This document shows, piece after piece, positions 1,303 through 7,102 of a stretch of 10,441 nt of DNA. Location of the stretch: the IMG/VR virus record IMGVR_UViG_2681813269_000009; one strand, written 5' to 3'. A program made the translations under genes and the position numbers. The stretch is from a virus (taxonomy: Duplodnaviria > Heunggongvirae > Uroviricota > Caudoviricetes). Position 1 is the first letter of the stretch. Each line of letters opens with the position of its first letter. The notes beneath the pieces are model-generated. The model was not told the origin of the DNA, did no database searches, and worked only from the letters and a program-made list of their open reading frames with translations.

Positions 1303-1667
1303 TGATTAATCGAACCAAACTGGAGCACATTCTCGAATATGCCAGGCAGCAGAAATGTATTGGGCAACTTTGTAAAATTCCACCAGGAGATATGGTTGAA
1401 ATCGTGGAAATGGCCATGCGTAAGGCTGGCAACTCTCCGGTAGCTCCGGCTGGCTGGATAAGCTGTAGTGATGCAGTTCCTGCTGAATATTGCGATGTGA
1501 TTCTTCTCGATGATCTCGGGAATGTATTCCCCGGTTCCTGGGATAAGGTTTTTTGCCCCACTCGTGGCGGGAATAAGATGGCTTTTGTGGACAAAGACGG
1601 CGTTGAAGTAGAGAGCTCAACTCACTGGATGCCGCTACCGGAACCACCGCAGGAGGTGAATCAATGA
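1302..1667 (+). CDS. Hypothetical phage protein, possibly DUF551-like (121 aa)
   Basis: TAATG overlap with the preceding stop. SD aagggaga at 1288-1295. W/P-rich C-terminal region (WISCSDAVP ... THWMPLPEPP) recalled as typical of DUF551 nin-region proteins; family call is from memory. Confidence 0.65.
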   Translation: MINRTKLEHILEYARQQKCIGQLCKIPPGDMVEIVEMAMRKAGNSPVAPAGWISCSDAVPAEYCDVILLDDLGNVFPGSWDKVFCPTRGGNKMAFVDKDGVEVESSTHWMPLPEPPQEVNQ

Positions 1668-1747
1668 CCTGGCCTGAGGCATTCACCACGGTAGGAATTG
1701 CGATGGCGGTGGCGCTGGTGGTGTATTCGATTTGCCGCTGGGGATAA
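1664..1747 (+). CDS. Small hydrophobic peptide (27 aa), MTWPEAFTTVGIAMAVALVVYSICRWG
   Basis: ATGA overlap with the upstream stop (1665-1667). Single predicted TM helix. Below the 60-aa cutoff of the ORF track; found by reading the sequence. Confidence 0.4.
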   Translation: MTWPEAFTTVGIAMAVALVVYSICRWG

Positions 1748-1753
1748 AAACGG

Positions 1754-1782
1754 TTTGCGGGAAAAGGAGAGTTAAGTAGAAT
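1754..1782 (+). promoter_or_regulatory. Candidate sigma70 promoter for the hok mRNA
   Basis: -35 TTTGCG (1754-1759), 17-bp spacer, -10 TAGAAT (1777-1782). The predicted start at about 1789 coincides with the 5' fold-back element gggtgcttgagg (1789-1800). Confidence 0.4.
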
Positions 1783-1958
1783 TGCAGCGGGTGCTTGAGG
1801 CTATCTGTCTCAGGCATGAACACCAAAAGGCAGATAGAGAAAAGCCCCAGTTAACATTACGCGTCCGGCAAGACGCTTAACATTAATCTGAGGCTCAATC
1901 TATGAACGGCAAATCTAGGTTAGCCTCTTACGTGCCGAAAGGCAAGGAGAAGCAGGCT

Positions 1959-2114
1959 ATGAAGCAGCAAAAGGCGATGTTAATCGCCCTGATCGTCATC
2001 TGTTTAACCGTCATTGTGACGGCACTGGTAACGAGGAAAGACCTCTGCGAGGTACGAATTCGAACCGGCCAGACGGAGGTCGCTGTCTTCACAGCTTACG
2101 AACCTGAGGAGTAA
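1959..2114 (+). CDS. hokD: Hok/Gef-family type I toxin (51 aa membrane peptide)
   Basis: MKQQKAMLIALIVICLTVIVTALVTRKDLCEVRIRTGQTEVAVFTAYEPEE is the Hok/Gef signature and matches my recollection of E. coli HokD/RelF. SD aaggaga at 1944-1950. The in-frame ATG at 1902 gives an N-terminally extended, mok-like frame. Position is syntenic with hokD in Qin (hok, rem, ydfU, Q). Confidence 0.8.
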   Translation: MKQQKAMLIALIVICLTVIVTALVTRKDLCEVRIRTGQTEVAVFTAYEPEE

Positions 2115-2183
2115 GAGACCAGGCGGGGGAGAAATCCCTCGCCACCTCTGATGGGTCAGGCATCCTCAATGCACCCACACTTA

Positions 2184-2209
2184 ACCCGCTTCGGCGGGTT
2201 TTTGTTTTT
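2184..2209 (+). terminator. Rho-independent terminator of the hok transcript
   Basis: Stem acccgc (2184-2189), loop ttcg, stem gcgggt (2194-2199), followed by tttttgttttt. Confidence 0.65.
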
Positions 2210-2334
2210 ATTTTCAACGCGTTTGAAGTTTTAGATGGTGCCGGAATAGAATCAAAAATACTTAAGTAGCGCGCAGGGAGAAGAGGGATGGACCCCGAAC
2301 AGGGGAGTGCTATTTATCTGGAAGGATTCTGTTG

Positions 2335-2616
2335 ATGAAAATCGAAGAATTACGTGAAATTTTTAGTGAAGATGGCCTCTATACTGTGCGCGTTGAGAAT
2401 GGCGCTATTGTCAGCCACTGCCTTCCAGACTACACAATTCTGATAATTCAGCCGTCTTTGCCAGCAGGCACGGGCGGCGCTCTCACGCATTTAAATCTGA
2501 TTGGTACCAGCATCCCCCATGCACTGAAGAACAGGCCGAATGGCTCATTCAGTGTTACCGCAGGCGCGGATGCGAGGTTAAAAAAGCCCTTAGCCTCGAC
2601 TACCGTCACTGGATAA
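2335..2616 (+). CDS. Hypothetical protein (93 aa), at the rem position of Qin-like prophages
   Basis: ATG at 2335 with SD ggaagga at 2320-2326. Lies between hok and the DUF968 gene as rem does in Qin. Sequence not recognised, so the call rests on position only. Confidence 0.4.
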   Translation: MKIEELREIFSEDGLYTVRVENGAIVSHCLPDYTILIIQPSLPAGTGGALTHLNLIGTSIPHALKNRPNGSFSVTAGADARLKKPLASTTVTG

Positions 2617-6620: not shown

Positions 6621-6696
6621 GGCCCTTTAGCTCAGTGGTGAGAGCGAGCGACTCATAATCGCCAGGTCGCTGGTTCAAATCCAGCAAGGGCCACCA
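6621..6696 (+). tRNA. tRNA-Ile2 (anticodon CAT, lysidine type; Met not excluded)
   Basis: Hand-folded cloverleaf: acceptor ggccctt / aagggcc, anticodon loop ctCATaa, T-loop ttcaaat, 3' CCA. Closely resembles E. coli ileX and the ileZ of Stx phages, from memory. Confidence 0.8.
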
Positions 6697-6703
6697 TCAC
6701 ATA

Positions 6704-6780
6704 CCGCCATTAGCTCATCAGGAAAGAGCGCCAGCCTTCGAAGCTGGCTGCGCGGGGTTCAAGTCCCCGATGGCGGTCCA
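6704..6780 (+). tRNA. tRNA-Arg (anticodon TCG)
   Basis: Acceptor ccgccat / atggcgg, D-stem gctc / gagc, anticodon stem ccagc / gctgg with loop ctTCGaa, T-arm cgggg-ttcaagt-ccccg, discriminator t, CCA. Confidence 0.75.
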
Positions 6781-6793
6781 TTATCTGCATCAT

Positions 6794-6833
6794 GCGTTGT
6801 TAGCTCAGCCGGACAGAGCAATTGCCTTCTAAG
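6794..6833 (+). tRNA. tRNA-Arg (TCT), 5' part only, truncated by assembly gap
   Basis: Identical to the first 40 nt of the complete tRNA at 7103-7179, then runs into N at 6834. Confidence 0.5.
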
Positions 6834-6982
6834 NNNNNNNNNNNNNNNNNNNNNNNNNNNNNNNNNNNNNNNNNNNNNNNNNNNNNNNNNNNNNNNNNNN
6901 NNNNNNNNNNNNNNNNNNNNNNNNNNNNNNNNNNNNNNNNNNNNNNNNNNNNNNNNNNNNNNNNNNNNNNNNNNNNNNNNNN
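6834..6982. other. Assembly gap (149 N)
   Basis: Run of N. Confidence 1.
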
Positions 6983-7002
6983 AAATCCAGCAAGGGCCAC
7001 CA
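6983..7002 (+). tRNA. 3' end fragment of a second tRNA-Ile2 copy
   Basis: aaatccagcaagggccacca is identical to 6677-6696 and emerges from the gap. Confidence 0.5.
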
Positions 7003-7009
7003 TCACAAA

Positions 7010-7089
7010 CCGCCATTAGCTTATCAGGAAGAGCAGACGACACGATAACAGGGTTGTTGGTGCGGGGGCGGGTCCCCGATGGCGGTCCA
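7010..7089 (+). pseudogene. Degenerate tRNA-Arg-like element
   Basis: Keeps the acceptor stem (ccgccat / atggcgg), a D-arm and 3' CCA of the Arg-TCG tRNA. The anticodon and T arms are replaced by gacgacacgataacagggttgttggtgcgggggcgggt, which has no canonical 7-nt anticodon loop or TTC T-loop. Confidence 0.45.
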
Positions 7090-7102
7090 TTATCGGTATT
7101 CA

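Follow-up and report, generated by a model that had tools for sequence, protein, structure and literature searches.

The DNA analysed here, termed the window, is the whole stretch of 10,441 nucleotides from the viral record IMGVR_UViG_2681813269_000009 (Caudoviricetes). A small toxin gene, an overlapping reading frame, a candidate antisense RNA gene and the signals for their expression are packed at 1754-2209. These features are as follows.

1754-1782, plus strand: hok promoter, with -35 TTTGCG (1754-1759), a 17-nt spacer and -10 TAGAAT (1777-1782), assigned from the sequence and the conservation of the -10 element
1789-2209, plus strand: full-length hok mRNA (~421 nt), from the predicted transcription start site to the terminator T-run, assigned from Rfam RF01794, the fold and the terminator
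1789-1800, plus strand: tac element at the mRNA 5' end, GGGUGCUUGAGG, which pairs with 2164-2176 and shows covariation
1840-1910, minus strand: predicted gene of a 71-nt Sok antisense RNA, aligned co-linearly with sokW as annotated in 933W
1842-1848, plus strand: ucb-like box AAGCCCC, predicted to pair with tac instead of fbi after 3' processing of the mRNA, assigned from the fold of 1789-2163 and the RF01794 consensus
1890-1927, plus strand: Sok-target hairpin with the mok Shine-Dalgarno (SD) sequence (1890-1893) and the mok ATG (1902), predicted in the 3'-truncated fold only
1902-2114, plus strand: mok frame of 70 codons, overlapping hok in frame, taken from the ORF list and equivalent to mokW
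1917-1945, minus strand: Sok promoter, with -35 TTGCCT (1945-1940), a 17-nt spacer and -10 TAACCT (1922-1917), assigned from family conservation
1959-2114, plus strand: hok toxin gene of 51 aa with SD AAGGAG (1944-1949), assigned from PF01848 and identity with K-12 HokD
2164-2176, plus strand: fbi (fold-back inhibition) element, CCUCAAUGCACCC, assigned from the fold, a shuffle test, conservation and covariation
2183-2209, plus strand: intrinsic terminator, consisting of a stem (2183-2200) and a following T-run, found by a terminator search

All genes neighbouring hok are on the plus strand. Before it are genes for an HNH protein, a product without assigned function, a DUF551 protein and a 27-aa hydrophobic product; after it are a rem-like ORF and genes for a DUF968 protein, RusA, antiterminator Q and a DNA methylase, and then tRNAs. 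E. coli GF4 and strain 131 have a nearly identical gene order, which puts the module between the replication genes and Q. As judged from these sequences, the carrier is a lambdoid prophage, with the module in its early-right (nin-to-Q) region.

The 27-aa ORF (MTWPEAFTTVGIAMAVALVVYSICRWG; 1664-1748, plus strand) is unannotated. It starts with an ATG that overlaps the DUF551 stop codon (ATGA) and extends to the -35 element of hok. Both 933W and E. coli GF4 have this ORF upstream of their hok genes, conserved with synonymous and conservative changes, and it gives no match to Pfam or NCBIfam families. Its product may be a small membrane protein that accompanies the hok cassette. On the other side, a promoter-like sequence (TTGAAG-18-TAGAAT; 2223-2252, plus strand) is located just past the hok terminator and before the rem-like ORF (2332-2616, plus strand). 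The combination of the hok terminator and this promoter suggests that hok is an insulated unit between two other transcription units. The rem-like ORF encodes 94 aa in the window, compared with 83 aa for K-12 rem, and its GF4 counterpart is a pseudogene; no family match is found for the rem-like ORF, including in NCBIfam.

Several repeats are observed farther downstream. The tRNA cluster (6621-7179, plus strand), which follows Q and the methylase gene, contains tRNA-Arg(TCG), tRNA-Arg(TCT) and a CAT-anticodon tRNA that related genomes have annotated as tRNA-Ile. The cluster includes a duplicated unit of ~306-309 nt (6677-6833 and 6983-7142), partly under an N run. The cluster resembles ileZ-argN-argO, which is located upstream of stx in Stx phages; no stx genes are found in the window. 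Rfam STnc100 matches the plus strand twice, at 8005-8194 (123.6 bits) and 9474-9662 (71.2 bits). These two copies share a 126-nt direct repeat that is 99% identical (8044-8169 and 9512-9637) and bracket the orfB of an IS3-family transposase (8416-9234, minus strand), and the second copy is inside an apparent IS orfA frame (9270-9617, minus strand), which includes masked N. An 80-nt repeat pair is located at 7835-7914 and 7964-8043. Rather than a free-standing sRNA gene, the STnc100 matches may mark an element that is mobile or associated with repeats. N runs (masked sequence) interrupt the tRNA duplication at ~6840-6990, the 80-nt repeat pair at 7915-7960 and the IS orfA/STnc100 copy at 9500-9512.

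The translation of the ORF at 1959-2114 is MKQQKAMLIALIVICLTVIVTALVTRKDLCEVRIRTGQTEVAVFTAYEPEE. It matches Pfam HOK_GEF (PF01848) with an E-value of 1.2e-23 and 82.9 bits (cut-off 22), and it is identical to K-12 HokD at all 51 residues (100%), in agreement with its initial annotation as a 51-aa Hok/Gef toxin. The NCBIfam Hok-family models match it below their curated cut-offs (48.5 versus 73 bits). The TR..LCE motif of the Hok family is seen in the toxin alignment that includes the window Hok. The in-frame mok-like extension that had been proposed to start at 1902 is found as a 70-aa ORF (1902-2114), which is preceded by the SD sequence GAGG at 1890-1893. This frame is equal to the annotated mokW in length and position, and an equivalent frame is present in related loci.

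The mRNA 5' end gggtgcttgagg (1789-1800) pairs with cctcaatgcaccc (2164-2176) through 12 base pairs with one bulged U. The minimum free energy (MFE) fold of 1789-2209, a calculation suggested in the initial annotation, has an energy of -169.2 kcal/mol (z = -6.7), and its outermost helix is formed by these two segments. The energy of the tac-fbi duplex is -21.5 kcal/mol, and this value is reached within the 10.4-kb window only by tiles containing 2164-2176. An alternative explanation for this complementarity is that a GC-rich 3' UTR produced it by coincidence and that the ORF is a hok remnant without RNA-level control. Dinucleotide-shuffled 3' UTRs indeed give a mean duplex of -14.1 kcal/mol, and 11 of the 2000 shuffles equal the observed value. 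However, the pairing is also encountered far beyond the window. The conservation set consists of 65 hok loci from species-representative genomes together with plasmid and phage loci, in which the conserved 5' end of the hok mRNA was found by HMM. In ~55 of these independent loci, which come from many Enterobacteriaceae, the best 5'/3' duplex is located at the same relative position, +340 to +390. The duplex is GGGUGC/GCACCC in 21 loci and (U/C)GGCGC/GCGCC in ~35, with G-U variants in a few, such that position 4 of tac-fbi shows a compensatory U-A/C-G change between two clades. Loci with a degenerate hok or fbi, in a Citrobacter IncI plasmid (L006) and in L011/L024, were excluded from the covariation argument. 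Coincidence is also difficult to reconcile with the closure of the global MFE structure by this helix and with a leader that scores nearly twice the gathering score of RF01794. Chance complementarity is therefore rejected on the covariation, and we regard it as extremely improbable. The proposed pairing of the mRNA ends with a 1-nt bulge is thus confirmed, and its pattern reproduces the classical tac/fbi covariation of hok mRNAs.

Some enterobacterial hok loci of this kind (L018, L026, L031, L033-L035, L049 and L068) are found in assemblies with non-enterobacterial labels (Veillonella, Acinetobacter, Xanthomonas, Ferruginibacter, Streptomyces, Oscillibacter, Dysgonomonas and Vagococcus), mostly on short contigs. 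They most likely represent contamination or mis-binning, not real hosts.

Rfam RF01794 matches 1789-1964 over the full model (1-157) with 112.4 bits (gathering score 59; E = 1.5e-25). This family bears the name "sok", yet it models the sense-strand hok leader, and its position 1 corresponds to 1789. When the 3' end is removed, so that only 1789-2163 is folded, 1789-1796 pairs with 1842-1848, and the consensus structure of RF01794 agrees with this pairing. The local fold of the hairpin at 1890-1927 has an energy of -14.7 kcal/mol (z = -3.3). These folds predict a structural switch from tac-fbi to tac-ucb plus the target hairpin upon 3' truncation.

The hok promoter proposed in the initial annotation has its -10 element, TAGAAT, at a position-conserved site, and its -35 element, TTTGCG, is weak. 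TAnnAT is present at -12 to -7 of the conserved mRNA 5' end in essentially all related loci (~45 distinct ones), and the sequences upstream of this -10 element are otherwise unrelated among them. The terminator is likewise detected, as a hairpin (2183-2200) and a T-run. For the antisense RNA, only a candidate promoter, TTGCCT/TAACCT, had been given and was regarded as weak. Its location is correct, and it is indeed weak by consensus, but the doubt about it does not hold, because it is the Sok promoter conserved throughout the family. In hok loci of both clades, whether on chromosomes, prophages or plasmids, the -35 TTGCCT is invariant and TAnnCT follows at an unchanged spacing. The stretch at 1917-1945 is the only part of the locus that is still matched by blastn in distant Klebsiella plasmid loci. 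Both the hok and Sok promoters fit the sigma-70 consensus poorly, and a consensus promoter scan of 1600-2400 finds neither of them, its sole match being 2223-2252.

The predicted Sok consists of the 5' tail GCCGUUCAUAG, a long hairpin and CUUUU, overlaps the mok SD sequence and start codon, and folds with an energy of -33.2 kcal/mol (z = -5.9). Its predicted ends (1910 to 1840) are co-linear with those of the sokW misc_RNA of 933W (2637-2707 of locus L001, minus strand). The sequence comparison thus supports a Sok gene in the window that is not doubtful, with a predicted transcript from 1910 to 1840 on the minus strand.

The closest well-characterized relative is hokW/mokW/sokW of the Stx2 phage 933W and the Sakai prophage Sp5 (AF125520). 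The segment at 1703-2186 is 92.6% identical in DNA to this module and its Stx-phage relatives. The 933W toxin also consists of 51 aa and is 92% identical to the window Hok, and its mok frame also has 70 codons. Both modules have the same tac, fbi, Sok promoter hexamers and Sok hairpin, and in both a DUF551-type gene plus a tiny hydrophobic ORF is located upstream. Their differences are limited to the terminator, the location on the phage map, a few residues at the C-terminus and the Sok 5' tail/mok N-terminus. The 5' single-stranded tail of Sok, which corresponds to the first 5-6 mok codons, is GCCGUUCAUAG in the window and GUGUUCAGCAUGG in 933W, and this divergence suggests that the two Soks may not cross-react. 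The C-terminus of Hok is TAYEPEE in the window and VDYESEK in HokW. The terminator sequence of the window is replaced in 933W, where homology stops just past fbi, and the module is located near the prophage end in 933W but in the nin region in the window. The 933W module has been annotated since 1999, and experiments identified hokW-sokW of Sp5 as a toxin-antitoxin system of type I (Takada et al. 2021, PMC8621323). HokW is toxic and located to the inner membrane, and the 71-nt SokW counteracts it, partly via RNase III and Hfq (PMC8621323). An Rfam sRNA-Xcc1 match (69 bits) is located upstream of the hokW neighbourhood of 933W (L001 147-235, plus strand).

The segment at 1902-1920 (plus strand; 1910-1900 on the minus strand) is the only strongly diverged stretch relative to 933W, and other loci vary there too. 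It looks like a hypervariable specificity segment that would prevent cross-talk among the 2-11 hok copies of an E. coli genome.

The architecture of the window module is the same as that of R1 hok/sok (parB) and its plasmid relatives (represented by the Klebsiella/Atlantibacter IncF loci L005 and L007). The R1-type loci and the window share the fixed distance of the -10 element from the 5' end, the tac/fbi duplex, the mok overlap, the TTGCCT-17-TAnnCT Sok promoter and the terminator immediately after fbi, and the Rfam leader model fits both. However, the R1-type toxin is only ~40% identical to the window Hok, and tac is GGCGCUU in the R1-type loci but GGGUGCUU in the window, a difference compensated by a change in fbi. 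The bulge of the duplex is on opposite strands in the two types, and the carrier is a plasmid for the R1-type loci and a prophage for the window. The window Sok hairpin has an extra insertion of ~16 nt relative to the Rfam consensus.

The window locus is 95-98% identical to loci annotated as hokD in thousands of E. coli chromosomes, with 97.9% identity for the top full-length E. coli match. No identical copy is found among the 65 hok loci of the set based on species-representative genomes, the closest being 95.5% identical. Homology, structure and covariation all support the initial annotation, which described a complete type I module of the hok family that is inhibited by fold-back. The segment at 1754-2209 very probably represents a type I toxin-antitoxin module (hok/mok/sok, hokD/hokW subgroup) that is intact in sequence and belongs to a lambdoid prophage. 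The elements, structures, conservation and genomic context on which this assignment is based are shown by the analysis itself. It is an already known locus of the textbook type.

The initial annotation had contrasted this locus, which has no relBE upstream, with K-12 Qin, in which hokD follows relBE. No relBE is found upstream of the window hok in the ORF list or by Pfam; the DUF551 gene and the 27-aa ORF are located there. This absence stands, but its reading as an oddity does not, because the intact form is the commoner one in E. coli. K-12 hokD (relF), in the relBEF operon of the cryptic prophage Qin, encodes the same 51-aa toxin with an identical hok SD sequence, fbi box and terminator; this terminator is also present in GF4. 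K-12 Qin and the window also share the downstream genes rem, ydfU (DUF968) and Q. However, the alignment of the window with K-12 Qin shows homology only from ~1945, inside the Sok -35 element/hok SD sequence, upstream of which relE is located in K-12. In K-12, relE-relB stands in place of the hok promoter, tac and ucb, the mok start, the Sok gene and the greater part of the Sok promoter. The position of this breakpoint indicates that K-12 hokD is 5'-truncated and lacks the promoter, leader, mok start and Sok; it is an orphan toxin ORF co-transcribed with relBE. The window, which has the full leader and no relB-relE, does not have the relBEF-type arrangement of K-12 Qin. It has been reported that an ancestral ORF of ~70 codons was shortened to 51 by relBE integration (PMC6379469), and Pedersen & Gerdes 1999 are cited in PMC12214031 for the inactivation of hokD by rearrangement. 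The intact type, defined by at least 80% coverage of the probe 1700-2260, is present in 2990 of 5426 complete E. coli genomes, and the K-12 relE-hokD junction in 1173 of them. Rearrangement of the window locus as the cause of the absence of relBE is rejected, because the breakpoint analysis shows that the K-12 copy is the rearranged one. The sequence comparison identifies the window arrangement as the common, ancestral state and the K-12 relBE-hokD arrangement as a derived truncation, which accounts for the lack of relBE in the window.

Transcription, processing, host toxicity and physiological role of the hok/sok locus at 1754-2209 are what we infer by analogy. The mechanism is modelled on the plasmid R1 paradigm, and each element that this paradigm requires is found in the window. 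A stable mRNA of ~421 nt would be made from 1789 by the weak hok promoter. In the full-length mRNA, tac at the 5' end and fbi at the 3' end (2164-2176) would be paired, so that the mRNA is locked and is neither translated nor bound by Sok. Slow 3' exonucleolytic trimming would remove fbi, upon which tac would pair with 1842-1848 and the new hairpin at 1890-1927 would expose the mok SD sequence, the start codon and the Sok target. The unstable but abundant 71-nt Sok, transcribed from the convergent promoter at 1945-1917 and fully complementary to 1840-1910, would block translation of mok, hence the coupled translation of hok, and trigger cleavage by RNase III. When the supply of Sok ends, Mok and Hok would be translated, and the 51-aa Hok would enter the inner membrane and collapse the membrane potential. 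Its roles are likely prophage retention and/or assistance of lysis after induction, by analogy with hokW-sokW of Sp5.

An intact sequence is no guarantee of hok/sok activity. The locus may be physiologically silent, a decaying passenger of a defective prophage without a role in killing, maintenance or lysis. This is conceivable because chromosomal hok loci tested earlier failed post-segregational killing (PSK) assays: as summarised in bioRxiv 10.1101/2025.08.07.668861, hokA, hokB and hokC failed in PSK and rifampicin tests. In addition, both promoters are weak by consensus, and the many IS elements and duplications of the surrounding prophage downstream of the module suggest a degrading element. 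The toxin itself may be another weak point. The window Hok contains only Cys15 and Cys30 and has Tyr where other Hok toxins keep a C-terminal Cys, and the lack of a DNA-encoded C-terminal Cys might limit its toxicity. In K-12, the C-terminal Cys of HokD is reportedly supplied only through low-level A-to-I editing of the mRNA, in which TadA recodes Tyr to Cys at 6% (PMC12214031). The window contains the UACG motif of the TadA editing context at 2097-2100 (plus strand), formed by the Tyr47 codon UAC and the following G, and editing at Tyr47 would give the C-terminal Cys that other Hok toxins have in DNA. A second UACG is located at 2052-2055, at a synonymous position. No stable tRNA-Arg-like hairpin is predicted around the TACG motif at Tyr47 by local folding, a result consistent with the low hokD editing level in the literature but of little weight.

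Nevertheless, the regulatory elements are all kept, the mok and hok frames are open, and no disabling change is present relative to the functional hokW/sokW. The toxin is identical to HokD, which is toxic when overexpressed and has served as a toxic control (bioRxiv 10.1101/2025.08.07.668861). The paired elements also show purifying conservation with compensatory change across clades, which argues for selection on the RNA mechanism in the lineage. We therefore consider a silent locus rather unlikely. According to the same preprint, Hok is present in ~80% of Enterobacteriaceae genomes and is enriched in prophages.

If the module is active, it may be mainly a device of the phage cycle rather than an addiction module. 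N-antiterminated read-through from early-right transcription on the sense strand would then occlude the convergent Sok promoter and titrate Sok, and Hok would be made early after induction and aid lysis and release; alternatively, the module would be an abortive-infection defence against superinfecting phages. This possibility is suggested by the orientation of the genes, with hok co-oriented with the replication-to-Q operon and Sok antisense to it, and by the behaviour of Sp5, in which SokW vanishes on RecA-dependent induction, for a reason left open by the authors, HokW appears ~1 h before endolysin, and phage release falls to half when the locus is deleted (PMC8621323). R1 hok/sok is also said to lower the plating of T4, according to a work cited in PMC8621323. 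However, the read-through and interference step is purely conjectural, and the 933W module is located elsewhere on the phage map, so that the same logic would require transcription across attP in that phage. Moreover, hok loci are not enriched near defence systems (bioRxiv 10.1101/2025.08.07.668861). A device mainly of the phage cycle is thus possible but doubtful, and a hok/mok/sok module that works as in R1, with the likely roles given above, remains our preferred reading.

Two further proposals are tentative, and our confidence in them is low. One is that read-through upon induction silences the convergent Sok promoter and sponges Sok: the antiterminated early-right operon is transcribed in the direction of hok and against that of Sok, so that Sok could be shut off or titrated by induction itself. 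The other is that the divergent Sok 5' tail/mok N-terminus defines a separate specificity class.

For the region itself, 1754-2209 has little importance apart from its correct annotation: it should be labelled as a hokD/hokW-type hok-mok-sok locus, and the label should include the Sok RNA gene, which genome pipelines do not annotate. The region is also a reminder that K-12 relBE-hokD should not be taken as the reference. For studies on the role of prophage hok/sok in retention, lysis timing or phage exclusion, the form to consider is the intact one, which is found in over half of the complete E. coli genomes. If the proposals above are true, read-through upon induction would explain the RecA-dependent loss of SokW in Sp5, and Sok specificity classes would let several prophage hok/sok copies coexist without cross-neutralisation.
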